The notes below the pieces were generated by a model. It was not told the origin of the DNA and ran no database searches. It was given only the letters and a program-made list of their open reading frames with translations. A DNA stretch of 64,000 nucleotides, taken from the NCBI GenBank assembly GCA_965227875.1, contig OZ245783.1, positions 4,769,929 through 4,833,928 on the forward strand, read 5' to 3'. A program made the translations under genes and the position numbers. This DNA is from Hyphomicrobiales bacterium. Its GTDB lineage: Bacteria; Pseudomonadota; Alphaproteobacteria; Rhizobiales; JAJFHC01. Positions 8,670 through 14,444 of this stretch are shown here, piece by piece; the stretch's first letter is position 1; every line of letters begins with the position of its first letter.

Positions 8670-8760
8670 GGAGAGGTGGCCGAGTGGTCGAAGGCGCTCC
8701 CCTGCTAAGGGAGTAGGCGTCAAAAGCGTCTCGAGGGTTCGAATCCCTTCCTCTCCGCCA
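8670..8760 (+). tRNA. tRNA-Ser (anticodon GCU), CCA encoded
   Basis: GGAGAGG acceptor stem pairs with CCTCTCC. Anticodon stem-loop is CTCCC-CTGCTAA-GGGAG. Long variable arm (TAGGCGTCAAAAGCGTCTC), T-loop TTCGAAT, terminal GCCA. Confidence 0.92.
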
Positions 8761-8763
8761 TTT
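8744..8763 (+). repeat. attL-like direct repeat TCCCTTCCTCTCCGCCATTT
   Basis: Covers the last 17 nt of the tRNA plus 3 nt. Identical to 14425-14444. Confidence 0.85.
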
Positions 8764-8911
8764 CCCCGAAGACGTATTAGTATGAGTGATTTCAGGGTGT
8801 TAAGGATTGTGCCCTGAATGTCGGTGCCCCAAGTTGGTGCCCCAAGATTGCCACTCCCGGTCTGAAAGCCCGAGCCAACGCAGATCGGAAGTTGCCTGAA
8901 AGGCAGACGCA

Positions 8912-9757
8912 ATGGCCGCTGATGATGCAGAACTGGCAAGGCGCAAGAGTTTAACCTTCAAGGAGGCCGAGGGCTTGGTGCCTCTCCCCTCGCAACTAAA
9001 CCTGCGAAAAACGAGCCCAACCCTCAGAGCGCGGCTGTACGGCGTTGTCCATGATCGCCTGTTGAAAGATCGGGACAACTACTCGGCGAACTTGCGCGAA
9101 AAAAGCCTCGCCGTTATGCGCCACTACTGCATCAACAAGCTCGGCATGATGGCGGACGAACTCCCCCGTCATCGAAGCAAATGGCTGGAGTACGCGAAAG
9201 CGAACTATCAGGCAGATGACTACGGGAAGGTGTTTGACTTCACTCAGATCTTCTTGAGGTTAATGCAGGAAGAAGACCTGTCGCGGCAGGTATCCCATAT
9301 ATTGCAGGATGAGCGAGCAGCGTACCGACTGGTCGATGGCGACACCATAATGCCGATGTCCTCGGAGGAAGAGGGAGCGGCTTTGAATTCTGCATTAGGC
9401 GCCCTTGAGGCGGGCGAATTGGTGGGGCCGCGCAAGCACCTCGTTACCGCTGGGGCAAGATTGACTGAGGGAGACTATGCGGACAGCGTTCGGGAAAGTC
9501 TCCATGCCGTCGAGTCGCTGGCACGGTCCAAGACTGGCAAGAGCAAGTTTTCGGACGCACTGCGAGAACTGCACAACCAAATCCCCATGCACGGCTCGTT
9601 CAGAGCAGCCCTAGAGAAGCTCTATGGTTATGCAAGCGATGAGCCCGGGGTAAGGCACTCGAACTCGGAACAAGGAGAAGCCAAGGTAACAGAACGTGAT
9701 GCTCTGTTCGTCCTTGGGGTCTGCGCCTCCTTCATAACGTACCTACTTTCAGCCTAA
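8912..9757 (+). CDS. AbiJ-like protein (AbiJ-NTD4-type N-terminus, HEPN-type C-terminus)
   Basis: N-terminal 'LTFKEAEGLVPLPSQLNLRKTSPTLRARLYGVV' fits the remembered AbiJ_NTD4 pattern (F-x-x-R/A-x-G...Q...LRN-x-LW). C-terminal 'GDYADSVRESLHAVESLAR...LYGYASDEPGVRHS...ERDALFVLGVCASFITYL' fits the AbiJ HEPN-like tail. Confidence 0.55.
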   Translation: MAADDAELARRKSLTFKEAEGLVPLPSQLNLRKTSPTLRARLYGVVHDRLLKDRDNYSANLREKSLAVMRHYCINKLGMMADELPRHRSKWLEYAKANYQADDYGKVFDFTQIFLRLMQEEDLSRQVSHILQDERAAYRLVDGDTIMPMSSEEEGAALNSALGALEAGELVGPRKHLVTAGARLTEGDYADSVRESLHAVESLARSKTGKSKFSDALRELHNQIPMHGSFRAALEKLYGYASDEPGVRHSNSEQGEAKVTERDALFVLGVCASFITYLLSA

Positions 9758-9793
9758 TGGCGTGCTGCCAGAATGGCAGAAAGGCAGATAGAA

Positions 9794-9880
9794 GGTCGCT
9801 GCGCTCGACTGTGTCTAGCTGGTCGGGCTGGTCACCCTCCATTGGCTCGTATGGTTCGCCGTGACTTATAGTGGGTCGCC
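9794..9880 (+). repeat. Repeat module A, copy 1
   Basis: About 80% identical, in the same orientation, to 11027-11113. Shared core is GGTCGGGCTG.TC.CCCTCCATTGGCTCG. Confidence 0.8.
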
Positions 9881-10050
9881 GAGAGGCGCTGTCCGTCGGA
9901 GCGGGCGGGTTATGCTGCCCATCATCACCCCGCCACTGTGCTGGTTTCCCTGAGGCGTCTGGAGGCCATCTGTGTGACGATACTCGGGGCCGTTTTCCGG
10001 TGGCCCGCATAGCGGGTCACAATCGGGCGGACCTGTGTGGCTGCCACCGG
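9881..10050 (+). repeat. Repeat module B, copy 1
   Basis: About 70% identical, in the same orientation, to 10846-11010. Shared blocks are GCCCATCATCACCCCGCC and ATACTCGGGGCCGT..TCCGGTGG.CCGCAT. It ends 4 nt before the PLD-like gene stop. Confidence 0.75.
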
Positions 10051-10054
10051 ACCG

Positions 10055-10774
10055 CTATTGCTTAAAGTCAACGGTGCTGGATGCCCAAAGCCCCTCATAG
10101 GTCTGCTGAACCGCTGCAAATGTATCAGTGATCTCTGTCAGCGTCGTCGGCGCTTTCTTCGCGCCATCCTTGAATGAGGCGCCGGACTGGAAGCAACGGG
10201 CTTTGTCGATGAGGACGAAGCGATCATGGAAGTTCGCGGCCGAACGCACCTCCAATGAATGGCCGTACTGCTGAGCATAGGCTGTCGCTGCCGGGACTAA
10301 TGTGGCCTTCCTTTCTCTACACAGAAGTCGGACTGGAACGCTCTTGTCGATGTGAGGAATGTAGCGCGTCACGAACTCCGCATCCAAATAGGGATCGACG
10401 AACAGGACATCGGCTCGGGCACTCTCAATGACATTCCTAACGCCATCGAAGTAGTCGAACACCATCCCCCCATCGACGGCCAAGCCAGTTGGTCCACCAA
10501 TGTTCCGTTGGAGTCTCCAACGAGCCGCTCGGAGAAGTCGGCGGATTTCTACCTCGCTCGTGTAGCTCGTCAACCGGTCATAAAGGCCCCCTATCGCGGG
10601 ACCGATTGGCTTCGACAGAGGGGTCGGCAAATCCATGAAAGTGGCTTGCACACGGCCCAGCCAATCCAAGGTTGCATCATCATCATTGTCCATCTGGCCC
10701 AAAGCCGGTGATGTACGGATGATGTCTTCAATCTCTACTAACAGCTGCCTTTCGTCCAAGAACGCCTCCTCCAT
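10055..10774 (-). CDS. PLD-like (HKD-variant 'HDR') domain protein
   Basis: C-terminal 'VLFVDPYLD...VRLLCRE...FHDRFVLIDKARCFQSGASFKDGAKK' is a single phospholipase-D/nuclease-like repeat in which HDR replaces HxK. The N-terminal ~110 aa are unknown. Confidence 0.6.
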   Translation of the reverse strand: MEEAFLDERQLLVEIEDIIRTSPALGQMDNDDDATLDWLGRVQATFMDLPTPLSKPIGPAIGGLYDRLTSYTSEVEIRRLLRAARWRLQRNIGGPTGLAVDGGMVFDYFDGVRNVIESARADVLFVDPYLDAEFVTRYIPHIDKSVPVRLLCRERKATLVPAATAYAQQYGHSLEVRSAANFHDRFVLIDKARCFQSGASFKDGAKKAPTTLTEITDTFAAVQQTYEGLWASSTVDFKQ

Positions 10775-10845: not shown

Positions 10846-11010
10846 AAGAGGCGTCGTCCGACAGCGCGGAGTGGCTCGCCCATCATCACCCCGCCTCTGC
10901 GCGGACTTTGCAGAGTCGGCTGAACGCCATCGGTGCGGCAATACTCGGGGCCGTCGTCCGGTGGTCCGCATGGAGGGGCACATTGGGACTGGTCCGATGG
11001 TGCTGCCCGG
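10846..11010 (+). repeat. Repeat module B, copy 2
   Basis: See copy 1. It lies 71 nt upstream of the PLD-like gene start. Confidence 0.75.
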
Positions 11011-11026
11011 CTCGGGTAGCTAGGCC

Positions 11027-11113
11027 GGTCGCTCCGCTCCCGCTGCTCTGATCGGTCGGGCTGATCGCCCTCCATTGGCTCGCTTGGCTCGCCCTGAGTC
11101 ACAGTGAGTCGCT
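11027..11113 (+). repeat. Repeat module A, copy 2
   Basis: See copy 1. Here A follows B, the opposite order to copy 1. Confidence 0.8.
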
Positions 11114-11210
11114 GACGGCAATGTTACAGTTTCAGGTGGGGAGACAATGCGGGCAAGCCTAACGGGCCTGCACAGGCTTCTATGAGGCTCCTGGGGGCCT
11201 TTCCTTGGGG

Positions 11211-11259
11211 CGGGAGATTGGCCCTCGGCTCCTCTTCTCCCCATCCCCTCGGTGGTTAC
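11211..11259 (+). repeat. Direct repeat C, copy 1 (flanks serine recombinase)
   Basis: CGGGAGATTGGCCCTCGGCTCCTCTTCTCCCCATCCCCTCGGTGGTTAC. Matches 12351-12399 at 47 of 49 positions in the same orientation. Weaker similarity extends about 15 nt upstream. Confidence 0.85.
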
Positions 11260-11457: not shown

Positions 11458-12012
11458 CTAAGTCGCCAATGCGCGATAGACGCTGCGCTCGCTGATGCCA
11501 AGCTGAGTGGCGATGGCTGTGCGGGTCACGCCTTGGTCTGCCAGCGACTTGATGGCGTCCCGTTGGGCCATGGCCTTAGGCTTCCTCCCTGTGTACTTCC
11601 CTTGCGCCTTGGCCTTCTCAATCCCGGCCCTCTGCCTCTCCAGCATCATGGTCCGTTCAAACTCAGCGAAGGCCGCGAACATGGCAAGCTGTAGCTTCCC
11701 TGTGGCCGACTTGGTGTTGATCGTCTCGCCAGCGAAGTCGAGTATGCGTAGCCCAATCCCCCGCTTCTCTAGGTCGTCCACAAGGGCGAGGAGGCTGCGA
11801 AGGTCTCTGGCGAGCCTGTCCATCTTCGTCACCACAAGCGTATCGCCCTCGCGGAGATATCTCAGGGCTTCGTCAAGCTGGTCCCTCTGTGAGGCCCCTG
11901 AGGCGTGTTCCTCAAAGATGCGCTCGCAGCCTGCCGCCATGAGTGCTTCACGTTGGGCGTCCAGTCCCGCTACTTGGTCAACCGTCGAGGTCCGTGCGTA
12001 GCCTGTGAGCAT
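11458..12012 (-). CDS. Small serine recombinase (resolvase/invertase family)
   Basis: 'MLTGYARTSTVDQ' holds the catalytic Ser motif. Also 'LVVTKMDRLARDL' and a C-terminal HTH 'GVTRTAIATQLGISERSVYRAL'. ATG at 12012 has AAGGAAGG 8 nt upstream. The ORF is open to 12039. Confidence 0.9.
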   Translation of the reverse strand: MLTGYARTSTVDQVAGLDAQREALMAAGCERIFEEHASGASQRDQLDEALRYLREGDTLVVTKMDRLARDLRSLLALVDDLEKRGIGLRILDFAGETINTKSATGKLQLAMFAAFAEFERTMMLERQRAGIEKAKAQGKYTGRKPKAMAQRDAIKSLADQGVTRTAIATQLGISERSVYRALAT

Positions 12013-12350
12013 AAGGCAATCCTTCCTTTGGTCTGCCATTAGGTTCTAGACCTTGGTTTGATGACATGACAAAAGGTGGAAGTCAACCCTAATGGCAGAC
12101 TTAATGGCTGCGGACCCTGACAGCATCAAGACCCTGCCAGAACCTTGCCCTATTGGCAGTACGGGGCGGCTTCGAGCGATGACACTGGACGGCACCCCCC
12201 GGTGTTGGAAAACGTTGGGGCGCTGGACAGTGCGAATGGCGCTGCGAAAACGTGCTGGCGGGGCCTATGGGGAAACTCGCCCATTGCTACGTAAAAGACG
12301 ACCACTCGAATGAGCGACCCGTCAGCAGCTACTCGGGGTTTCCTTAGTGT

Positions 12351-12399
12351 CGGGAGATTGGCCCTCGGCTCCTCTTCTCCCCTTCCCCTCGGTGGCTAC
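12351..12399 (+). repeat. Direct repeat C, copy 2
   Basis: See copy 1. The spacing of 1140 bp encloses the recombinase gene. Confidence 0.85.
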
Positions 12400-12526: not shown

Positions 12527-12612
12527 CTCTATGGCTACTTAGTGTCGCGACTCTATGTATGCTACCAATAGACCGCTCATAGCCCCTTGAAAACACTCAA
12601 AGTCTCAACTCA
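12527..12612 (+). repeat. Repeat D, copy 1
   Basis: About 75% identical to 12669-12752. Each copy contains the sub-motif CTC(T/C)ATG(G/TAT)GCTAC twice, and the block CCCTTGAAA.C.CTCAAAGT. Confidence 0.75.
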
Positions 12613-12668: not shown

Positions 12669-12752
12669 CTCCATGGCTACCTGGGGGACCCTCTATGTAT
12701 GCTACTTATTAACGCCGCGTAGGCCCTTGAAATCGCTCAAAGTGCTAACTCA
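12669..12752 (+). repeat. Repeat D, copy 2
   Basis: See copy 1. It ends on the stop codon of the small ORF at 12750. Confidence 0.75.
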
Positions 12753-12971
12753 AGCCAATCTAGCGGCGGCGTTCCGCTGGTCCTCAATGAGCGCTTCGAG
12801 CCACGGTTTTAAGTCGGCTCCGCGTCGCCAGTCCCTCAGGAAGTCCGCCGTCTCGTAGTCGGGCAGGAAGTCTGGCGCAAAGGCGACGGCTGCGGTCAGT
12901 TCCTTCAGGTCGGCGGGGCCGATCTTGCTCAGGTCAGTGGCCATAAGGTCGCGGTCCTGATCGGTCATCAT
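12750..12971 (-). CDS. Hypothetical 73-aa protein translationally coupled to the integrase
   Basis: Its ATG (12969-12971) overlaps the integrase TGA (12968-12970) as ATGA. Acidic, no family recognised. Confidence 0.45.
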   Translation of the reverse strand: MMTDQDRDLMATDLSKIGPADLKELTAAVAFAPDFLPDYETADFLRDWRRGADLKPWLEALIEDQRNAAARLA

Positions 12972-14389
12972 TGGTCGGTGTCCTTGTGTTGGGCGAGGGA
13001 TTCGGGTGGAAGCTGGACGGCTTCGACGCAAGGACGCATGGCTTCAGGTGGCGTCTTGCCGGGGTAGTGACTCATGGTGAGGTGGAGCATTTGCTTGATG
13101 CCGCCGTCACTATGGCCAACCACATCGGCAATAACCCAAGGTGTGTATCCCGCTTCGGGGTTCGCCATTTCGTCTCGGGCCTTGAGGATGAACCACCTGC
13201 GGAACGAATGGAAATCGACGTTGGACTTCGCCTTGTCGTTTGGCCTTTCATCGACTCCAATGTTGCATCGGTATCTGCTGAAGCGCTTCGAGGCAGGATC
13301 GGAACGGCTGTCCCTTGACAGCGGCACGGGAGGCAGTTCTTCAATAAGGTAGTCCGTGGGCCGCTTACCTTCGATGCGACGATCTACGATGGCCACAAGG
13401 GCGCTGTGTACGGGAATGCGCCGCTTGGCGTTCTCAGTCTTGCCAGCGGGGATGCTGAATATGCCACCCTCGCAATCGGACACCCTAAGTTGGCATATCT
13501 CCTCAATCCTCATGCCGCTCAGCGCTGCAATGCGCATCAGGTCAGCCAGAATGGGCGGTGCGGGGCCATAGATCAGGGTCGCTAGCTCAGCGTCCGTGTA
13601 AGGTCGTTTGCCACCGTCTGGCTCCCCTTCATGGGCGACACGTCGCGGCGGCGATGGGAGGGCCAATCCGCGCCACGGGCTTTCGTGTTCAATGTGCCCC
13701 TGCTCCTCCATCCACTTCCAGTACTCACGGAGGAAGCCCAGGTAGGTGCCCGCCCTGTTCCGCGATAGCTTTCCTGCAAGCTCCTCCCGAATAAACCTTT
13801 TGGCGGCACTGCGGTCCAAGGCCTCAACGGTCGTGTGTAGGCTGTTCCGCTCTAGCCATTTGGCCAGCATGTCTAGGACGCGGGAGAAGTCCTTTGCGCC
13901 CTTGATGGTGTAGCTCTTGTGCGCCTTGAAGGCGTCTGCAAGGTAGTCGATTGGTGTCGCCCGTCCGCTGATCACCTGCCAGATTTCCTTTGCCCTCTCC
14001 TCCCCGTAGTCCTCCTCCACTTCGCGGACCAGATCGGGGATGGCGGCATTGGACACTTGCATGGGCATTGAGTAGTTGAGCCGGATGCGCAGAGCCTCGG
14101 CGTTGATTGGATCGCCCGCGTCAAGGGACTTCTGTGCGGCGCTGAGGATGCCCTTCAGCGTCGCCACCACGGGCCACTTCCGCTCGTTCGCTGCCCGAAG
14201 GTCTGCCGTGCCAAGTGATTGCTTCAGGAAAGTCTTACCAATGATCGGGACAAGCCGCTTGGGCACCCTGACCCGCACTCTCCATTGCTGGCCGTGCCAC
14301 TCTAGGTATTGCCGATTGCTGGTCACGCTTGCCCCGTTTGTGCCCCACCACAGTGCCCCAGCTTGGAGCGTAAACTGCAATAAAGTCAA
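12968..14389 (-). CDS. Tyrosine recombinase / phage-type integrase (DUF6538-like N-terminus)
   Basis: N-terminal 'YLEWHGQQWRVRVRVPKRLVPIIGKTFLKQSLGTAD'. Catalytic region 'LSGMRIEEICQL', 'HSFRRWF', 'VGHSDGG...MSHY'. There is no ATG at the 5' end, so the start is TTG 14389 or GTG 14326 (uncertain). Confidence 0.88.
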   Translation of the reverse strand: MTLLQFTLQAGALWWGTNGASVTSNRQYLEWHGQQWRVRVRVPKRLVPIIGKTFLKQSLGTADLRAANERKWPVVATLKGILSAAQKSLDAGDPINAEALRIRLNYSMPMQVSNAAIPDLVREVEEDYGEERAKEIWQVISGRATPIDYLADAFKAHKSYTIKGAKDFSRVLDMLAKWLERNSLHTTVEALDRSAAKRFIREELAGKLSRNRAGTYLGFLREYWKWMEEQGHIEHESPWRGLALPSPPRRVAHEGEPDGGKRPYTDAELATLIYGPAPPILADLMRIAALSGMRIEEICQLRVSDCEGGIFSIPAGKTENAKRRIPVHSALVAIVDRRIEGKRPTDYLIEELPPVPLSRDSRSDPASKRFSRYRCNIGVDERPNDKAKSNVDFHSFRRWFILKARDEMANPEAGYTPWVIADVVGHSDGGIKQMLHLTMSHYPGKTPPEAMRPCVEAVQLPPESLAQHKDTDQ

Positions 14390-14424: not shown

Positions 14425-14444
14425 TCCCTTCCTCTCCGCCATTT
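14425..14444 (+). repeat. attR-like direct repeat TCCCTTCCTCTCCGCCATTT
   Basis: Exact copy of 8744-8763. It lies 36 nt from the integrase 5' end. Confidence 0.85.

Follow-up and report, generated by a model that had tools for sequence, protein, structure and literature searches.

Do two neighbouring cargo genes of a small mobile island form one two-component defence system, or are they independent genes that share an island? This question is raised by a locus in a 64,000-nucleotide stretch (hereafter the window) of contig OZ245783.1 of a Hyphomicrobiales bacterium (assembly GCA_965227875.1, positions 4,769,929 to 4,833,928). Here, a 5.7-kb stretch beside a transfer RNA gene, tRNA-Ser(GCT), is an integrative mobile island, and two genes, called A and B below, are its cargo. 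A first-pass annotation had proposed that they make up a two-gene defence module. We find instead, with a probability of roughly 0.6, that A and B are best explained as two independent single-protein candidate anti-phage genes of the abortive-infection type, co-located as island cargo, and not as one two-component system. The two genes are the following:

8912..9757, + strand: gene A, 281 aa; AbiJ_NTD4 domain (residues 19-162) and a putative HEPN-like helical domain (residues ~170-281), from Pfam, PADLOC, AlphaFold2 (AF2) and Foldseek
10055..10774, - strand: gene B, 239 aa; helical N-domain (residues 8-91) and a single PLD-fold domain (residues 108-238), from family alignment, AF2 and Foldseek

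The coordinates, lengths, strands and convergent arrangement given in the first-pass annotation were correct, and the peptides quoted there are present in the translations (YGYASDEPGVRHS in A; FHDRFVLID and GASFKDG in B). The two genes converge, with 297 bp between them, and are therefore separate transcription units.

We examined from both sides whether the two genes travel together. On the B side, 185,579 species-representative genomes were scanned, which gave 80 loci, 46 of them with a full-length B-type protein; the A-side set comprised 80 metagenomic loci and 10 from IMG/VR, 67 of them with usable flanks. At the B-type loci, flanks of up to 10 kb per side were covered. Within these flanks, neither tblastn nor the family hidden Markov model found an A relative near B at any of the 80 B-type loci. 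Overall, the partner was found in 3 of 71 A contexts, in 0 of 48 B contexts and in 0 of 8 contexts of B2, a sister subfamily of B; it was missing in 68/71, 48/48 and 8/8, respectively, and the module proposed earlier does not hold as a conserved system. Complete absence of co-occurrence, the outcome named in advance as fatal to the module, is nearly what was observed, the exceptions being three independent metagenomic loci with A-B adjacency. Both genes were rare on plasmids, and no plasmid record held the two. The neighbours of B share no family, and those of the 67 A loci showed no recurrent family except in near-identical loci, as fits a stand-alone gene. The A-B pair is clearly neither obligate nor a conserved system.

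The closest relatives point the same way. For B, these are found at two loci: L184 (59% identity) has no A gene in its flanks, and L175 (53% identity) carries, at a distance of 1.5 kb and on the far side of a large serine recombinase, a canonical Abi_C gene. For A, the closest relatives are all solo at the loci checked. The nearest one (51%, L172) stands alone beside the 3' end of a tRNA-Ser gene; those at 49% (L173/L174) lie between two serine recombinases in an island adjoining a truncated Mg-chelatase-family (ComM-like) gene; and those at 44-47% (L186/L187) occur singly in Rhizobium prophages whose terminase and tail genes are T7-type. More generally, relatives of A are typical cargo of mobile elements: 10 of the 90 loci have an A-type gene 50-540 bp downstream of a same-strand tRNA gene, which is tRNA-Ser(GCT) in three of them, and A relatives are also present in IMG/VR proviruses.

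Two other links between the families were considered and rejected. The Abi_C gene of L175 is not a split A gene, having no similarity to A and being a canonical Abi_C; and B2, as found at locus L123, is not a dedicated partner of A, given its eight contexts without A.

As a side observation, the A-family genes of prophages lie on the opposite strand, between the integrase/GP88 region and the terminase (L186 5001-7395; L187 5001-5855; L161), and the L186 prophage carries two different AbiJ_NTD4 genes 0.5 kb apart. A homologue of A is also annotated in Rhizobium phage RHEph01.

What kind of protein is A? Its N-terminus had been read as AbiJ-NTD4-like, and it does match AbiJ_NTD4 (PF18863) above the Pfam cut-off (36.9 bits versus 34, E 6.1e-9, residues 19-162), as do 27 of 27 aligned relatives. 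In PADLOC, A matches the single-gene candidate PDC-S32 (PDLC04997) over its full length (E 1.6e-52, 177 bits; residues 12-280 on profile positions 5-279 of 285); the literature searched under the name PDC-S32 yielded no validation of this candidate. The AF2 model (predicted local distance difference test, pLDDT, 87.4) has an alpha+beta N-domain and, after it, a helical bundle. Word-indexed homologues of A number 68, while its C-terminal domain alone finds 3,079 representatives at E <= 1e-3, and most of the best 150 of these share the ~285-aa architecture. Family-invariant residues are H176, Y238, G246, R248 and H249, and a stretch R194-E-S-x-H198 is invariant or nearly so.

The C-terminus of A had been likened to the HEPN tail of AbiJ, a reading that is only weakly supported. 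Foldseek places the domain with the HEPN structures 1ufb, 2hsb and 1o3u at probability 0.85-0.99, with E values of 0.36-1.6, all above 0.3. In Pfam, A itself has no Abi_C match and reaches Ymh below threshold (E 0.17); its relatives reach Abi_C (E 0.097 and 0.0067) and Ymh (E 0.0016), all under the cut-off. An hhalign comparison of the A family with a single Abi_C protein was not significant; the A family profile against PDB sequences and the A model against viral structures in Foldseek gave nothing; and PHROGs matched neither A nor B. The HEPN-like character of this domain is suggestive only: the structural matches favour it, whereas the E values, the sub-threshold Pfam scores and a non-canonical motif (see below) do not.

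The architecture AbiJ-NTD4 plus AbiJ-HEPN has been described before, with the N-terminal domain proposed to sense phage and to restrain the toxin (Anantharaman et al. 2013, PMC3710099), and Abi_C proteins such as SadR are RNases that defend against phage, their RNxxxxxH motif being catalytic (PMC13590631). A resembles the PDC-S32/AbiJ_NTD4 proteins (prototype CBY_0614; AbiJ family) in length, in its two-domain layout, in its end-to-end profile match and in being a single-gene unit with unconserved neighbours. It differs from them in a C-terminal domain that can only just be recognised as HEPN of the Abi_C or Ymh type, with 'G-[IV]-R-H' and 'R-E-S-x-H' where SadR has its catalytic RNxxxxxH. With lactococcal AbiJ and staphylococcal SadR, A would share the logic of an N-terminal domain joined to a C-terminal HEPN-type toxin, and presumably also the way of life of a single-gene, abortive-infection-type defence on a mobile element; in contrast to both, it has another N-domain, a C-domain whose similarity is below significance, and no canonical catalytic His.

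Gene B belongs to another family. Because the public database calls it as 234 aa and the family alignment begins at the equivalent of residue 6, its true start is probably TTG 10759 and not ATG 10774. The family is unnamed and very large (1,714 homologues; more than 1,700 clusters at 90% identity), and nearly all members are 234-237 aa long and alignable over their full length. The AF2 model (pLDDT 89.8) is helical at residues 8-91, has a disordered linker at 95-105 and is alpha/beta at 108-238. The N-terminal region, which the first-pass annotation had left without assignment and put at ~110 aa, is a helical domain of ~95 aa with no Pfam match; in a 26-sequence alignment, its invariant residues are L12, E14, E16, D17, R20, P23, W38, G40 and R41.

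The alpha/beta domain of B has the PLD fold (Foldseek against the PDB, E about 5e-7 to 1e-3), with matches to the non-catalytic proteins TrmBL2, MITD1 and FAM83 (E 2e-6 for FAM83) as well as to the nucleases NucT (2.5e-5), Nuc (1byr, 3.3e-5), Zucchini (8e-5), PLD3 and BfiI (7e-4). In the same 26-sequence alignment, its invariants are H183-D-R185, D190, S197-G-A-S-F-K-D-G204 and P209-T-T, which bears out the earlier description of a single PLD-like repeat with HDR in place of HxK. The motif HxK(x)4D(x)6G(S/T)xN is not found in B as such: H183 and D190 are invariant, the Lys is replaced by the invariant R185, and the distal part reads SGASFKDG. Subfamily B2 has the same H-D-R-x4-D core and a distal T/GQS[FL][KN]. 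Pfam PLDc_2 does not match B itself and stays sub-threshold in relatives (25.4 bits versus 27 in P0027; 19.1 bits in the B2 protein of L123), a few precomputed PF13091 matches occur among the listed B/B2 relatives, and the B family profile searched against PDB sequences gave only an insignificant match to Nuc (1byr, E 0.42).

Proteins with a single HKD-type domain usually act as dimers, as established for Nuc, Zucchini and BfiI. B resembles these single-HKD nucleases (Nuc, NucT, Zucchini/PLD6, BfiI) in having one PLD-fold domain per chain, with His and Asp at the HxKxxxxD positions, and dimerisation would likewise be expected to complete its active site. It differs from them in the change of Lys to Arg, in S-G-A-S-F-K-D-G for G-S-x-N (S-[FL]-K/N in B2), in its additional N-terminal helical domain and in that insignificant sequence similarity.

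Among PADLOC profiles, B matches PDC-S05, like PDC-S32 a single-gene candidate, over the C-terminal part only (E 4.8e-17). In B and 10 relatives the match covers only profile positions ~140-297 of 306, and across B and B2 it spans ~115-150 positions at E 1e-9 to 1e-22. Moreover, tblastn of B on plasmids finds 'RhuM family protein' genes over the same C-terminal part, and Pfam Virulence_RhuM has no match in B. Since only C-terminal positions of PDC-S05 are matched, we take B, on its sequence, to be a domain-swapped relative of the RhuM/PDC-S05 proteins and not a member: the PLD-like domain is common to both and homologous, whereas the N-terminal region of RhuM (profile positions 1 to ~140) is missing from B, in which a family-specific helical domain of ~95 aa carries a conserved ExED...WLGR motif. 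One PDC-S05 representative lowered the plating of T7 and T5 about 1,000-fold (preprint).

Subfamily B2 has more than 742 members, some of which bear the NCBI name cardiolipin-synthase-family. Genes of B2 occur in islands of defence type, where they neighbour reverse-transcriptase, SIR2 and DUF3800 genes.

Several side observations concern the surroundings of these relatives. In two Pseudomonas loci (L181 and L183, 3168-6093), the gene has a reverse-transcriptase neighbour, with DUF3800 (L181) or SIR2 (L183) further on. Truncated Mg-chelatase-family (ComM-like) genes adjoin relatives of A, B or B2 at L173 (2828-7406), L175 (4982-9971), L181 and L183, and the relatives at L173 and L175 also have large and small serine recombinases next to them. 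In Bradyrhizobium and Burkholderia (L176 3368-3979; L178 3330-3944), a gene for a 203-204-aa protein stands 22-57 bp upstream of the B2-type gene on the same strand. With 79% identity between the two genera, hydrophobic segments at its N-terminus and a charged region that resembles a coiled coil, this protein is a possible partner for that clade of B2.

The island that holds A and B has the following further features:

8670..8760, + strand: tRNA-Ser(GCT), with the island integration site at its 3' end (ARAGORN; Rfam tRNA 59.4 bits)
8744..8763, + strand: attL, exact 20-nt repeat TCCCTTCCTCTCCGCCATTT at the tRNA 3' end (repeat search, family D9, 100% identity)
11458..12039, - strand: small serine recombinase of resolvase/DNA-invertase type (HTH_7), 193 aa (Pfam Resolvase E 3.4e-40; PHROG DNA invertase E 1.2e-61)
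12750..13031, - strand: 93-aa open reading frame (ORF) overlapping the integrase start (ORF list; Pfam and PHROG searched)
12968..14389, - strand: tyrosine integrase (DUF6538 and Phage_integrase), 473 aa (Pfam; PHROG integrase E 3.3e-30)
14425..14444, + strand: attR, second exact copy of the 20-nt repeat TCCCTTCCTCTCCGCCATTT (repeat search)

The 20-mer consists of the final 17 bases of tRNA-Ser(GCT) plus 3 more. Between its two copies lie five ORFs, namely A, B, the serine recombinase, the 93-aa ORF and the integrase, and G+C content is 56-61% within the att repeats versus 62-66% beyond. With tRNA adjacency, direct repeats of the tRNA 3' end and an integrase, the element has what defines a tRNA-integrating island, in agreement with the earlier description of a small tRNA island. 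The 93-aa ORF matches no Pfam or PHROG family and is a possible excision factor. Like other small tRNA-integrating genomic (defence) islands, the element duplicates the tRNA 3' end, has a tyrosine integrase at its far end and a lower G+C, and carries defence-type cargo beside attL; it differs from them in its unusually small size of 5.7 kb, in its invertase-type serine recombinase and in internal repeat modules that frame individual genes. These modules are:

9821..10045, + strand: left repeat copy (D3 9821-9882, D1 9917-10045), between A and B, ending 9 nt from the B stop
10878..11115, + strand: right repeat copy (D1' 10878-11007, D3' 11054-11115)
11187..11259, + strand: D2 copy 1, 74 nt, 88% identical to 12328-12399
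12328..12399, + strand: D2 copy 2
12551-12612 and 12691-12752: D4, a 62-nt pair at a spacing of 140 nt

Gene B is flanked by the direct repeats D1 (130 nt, 76% identity) and D3 (62 nt, 82%), and the D2 copies, 84-88% identical with a long run of identical bases, bracket the serine recombinase gene. The phrase 'bracketed by repeats' in the first-pass annotation holds at two levels, since the att repeats bound the island and D1/D3 flank B. The order of D3 and D1 is swapped between the two sides of B; an invertase-mediated inversion was considered as the cause and ruled out, both modules being in direct orientation. D1, D2 and D3 match no Rfam family, have no further copies in the window, the plasmids, the fetched loci or IMG/VR, and their RNA folding is no better than that of shuffled sequences (z > -1.7). 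The repeats suggest a modular, gene-by-gene assembly of the island and may be recombination sites or cassette boundaries. That B is framed by direct repeats of its own suggests that it was acquired separately from A.

Shorter motifs also occur around the two genes, beginning with this one:

8893..8906, + strand: short hairpin motif TGCCTGAAAGGCAG (TGCCWGAAWGGCAG), 5 nt ahead of the A start codon (motif search)

The motif TGCCWGAAWGGCAG recurs as two overlapping related copies directly after the A stop (9766-9787), which makes 3 matches in the window versus 0.07 expected. The 9-mer GAAAGGCAG has 4 copies in the window versus 0.52 expected, 3 of them in the A-B region and each in the sense orientation of its neighbouring gene (8893-8906, 9766-9787, 10745-10753). 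The hairpin motif is not conserved in L172, the locus of the closest A relative, and a promoter/terminator scan gave nothing useful. A tandem GGTGCCCCAAG...GGTGCCCCAA was also seen between the tRNA and gene A (8820-8850), and again upstream of the A homologue in L172 (90-120); it may serve as a promoter element or as an arm site for the integrase.

On the reading of two independent genes, A fills the cargo position next to the tRNA that is usual for its family, and B would have been acquired separately. The N-terminal domain of A would detect some component of the phage and keep the C-terminal domain inactive until then, and the HEPN-like four-helix domain, once released, would act as an RNase-type toxin. 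On the model of Nuc, NucT, Zucchini and BfiI, B would form a dimer in which two half-sites make up a single phosphodiesterase centre, and it would then cut nucleic acid or possibly phospholipid.

Several observations weigh against this reading, and we take them together with the alternatives that they favour. The alternative that survives best, which we regard as unlikely, is that A and B are a genuine facultative two-gene defence unit, transferred together, in which A senses infection and licenses or synergises with the PLD-type nuclease B; in a variant, the NTD4 protein and the PLD-fold nuclease would act together physically or by sequential RNA and DNA attack. Its main argument is direct adjacency, in the window and in the three metagenomic loci L123, L106 and L125. 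At L123, A and B are convergent, as in the window, with a gap of 8 bp, and form a clean, precise A+B insert between two housekeeping genes, for a short-chain dehydrogenase/reductase and a molybdopterin oxidoreductase. L106, like the window, has the pair at tRNA-Ser(GCT); the order there is tRNA, small ORF, A and then B, with A and B co-directional and overlapping. At L125, B precedes A and the two are again co-directional. In these last two loci the genes abut or overlap. The B-type genes of L123 and L106 belong to B2; the four B-adjoining A proteins, that of the window included, are 35-46% identical to one another, which amounts to four A lineages with both B subfamilies represented. Moreover, B-type ORFs occupy the adjacent position in all three loci and are absent (0) among ~430 non-adjacent ORFs of the same loci. 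The adjacency is too frequent for random placement of such rare families, and the association is weak and non-random. Fusions of AbiJ-NTD1 and AbiJ-NTD2 directly to HKD nucleases in other proteins (PMC3710099) also favour a functional link.

What speaks against such a unit, beyond the missing partners, is that each of the four paired A proteins has closer relatives (50-69%) without B. No single order and orientation is kept either: the window and L123 are convergent, L106 has A then B and L125 B then A, and two of the four pairs, being convergent, are hence not co-transcribed. In addition, A and B each already pair a sensor-like with an effector-like domain, and B of the window is framed by its own repeats. 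The likeliest cause of the adjacency is a common preference for small cargo slots, or occasional co-transfer.

As an observation on the surroundings, the tRNA-Ser(GCT) island of L106 (2498-7807) holds a 180-aa ORF, the A homologue, the B2 homologue and then further ORFs, which by eye resemble a TcmP-like/DUF5131-like pair and a TIR-like protein, as in a defence island.

The remaining points against two independent effectors concern catalysis. The canonical HEPN motif RΦx3-5H (RNxxxxxH in SadR/Abi_C) was not found in A: R248-H249 aligns to the R-N of a canonical Abi_C protein (RNKIGDAH) with no distal His after it, and the R194-E-S-x-H198 pair has a shorter spacing than the HEPN motif and sits in a different helix. 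As A has no canonical motif and the best structural matches of B include the non-catalytic TrmBL2, MITD1 and FAM83, either protein could be non-enzymatic. On the corresponding alternative, one or both are not anti-phage effectors: B would be a PLD-like pseudo-enzyme or regulator, binding a ligand or a membrane like TrmB, MITD1 or FAM83, or else a phospholipid-modifying enzyme, and A an addiction or stabilisation toxin of the island. The layout of a helical bundle plus a PLD-like domain common to MITD1 and B, the alteration of the HKD motif of B at the canonical Lys and in the GSxN part, the cardiolipin-synthase-family name of some B2 members and the missing distal catalytic His of Abi_C in A would all fit. 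However, His183, Arg185 and Asp190 are invariant in 26 diverse sequences and the H-D-R-x4-D core is kept in B2; the genomic contexts are mobile or defence-type, not metabolic; and B has homology to PDC-S05, a candidate with a reported protective phenotype. We therefore consider this alternative quite unlikely. We regard as highly improbable the alternative that A and B are pseudogenes or chance ORFs, decaying as passengers on a degraded island. The large non-coding stretches and scrambled repeats within the island, and the many spurious ORFs that high-GC DNA gives, would agree with it, but both proteins are full length against their families, keep all invariant residues and have confident structure models, and the family alignments effectively refute it.

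Taken as two independent candidate defence genes, A and B are cheap single-gene targets for the discovery of defence systems. A is a PDC-S32 member whose suggested HEPN-like domain has lost the canonical catalytic His and keeps an invariant 'RH' pair. B represents a very large unnamed family that joins a new helical domain to a PLD-like domain of RhuM type whose HKD motif is the HDR variant, and its study would reveal the role of the conserved C-terminal domain in RhuM/PDC-S05 proteins. The locus also indicates that domain-plausible gene pairs on small islands should receive no system label without neighbourhood statistics. The infrequent but non-random adjacency of A and B is relevant to the question whether defence genes at one site work together or only have their cargo slots in common. 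A partnership, if true, would be a new defence-gene pairing of proteins that are also able to work alone, and would explain the direct adjacency of rare families in at least four unrelated lineages and with both B subfamilies.

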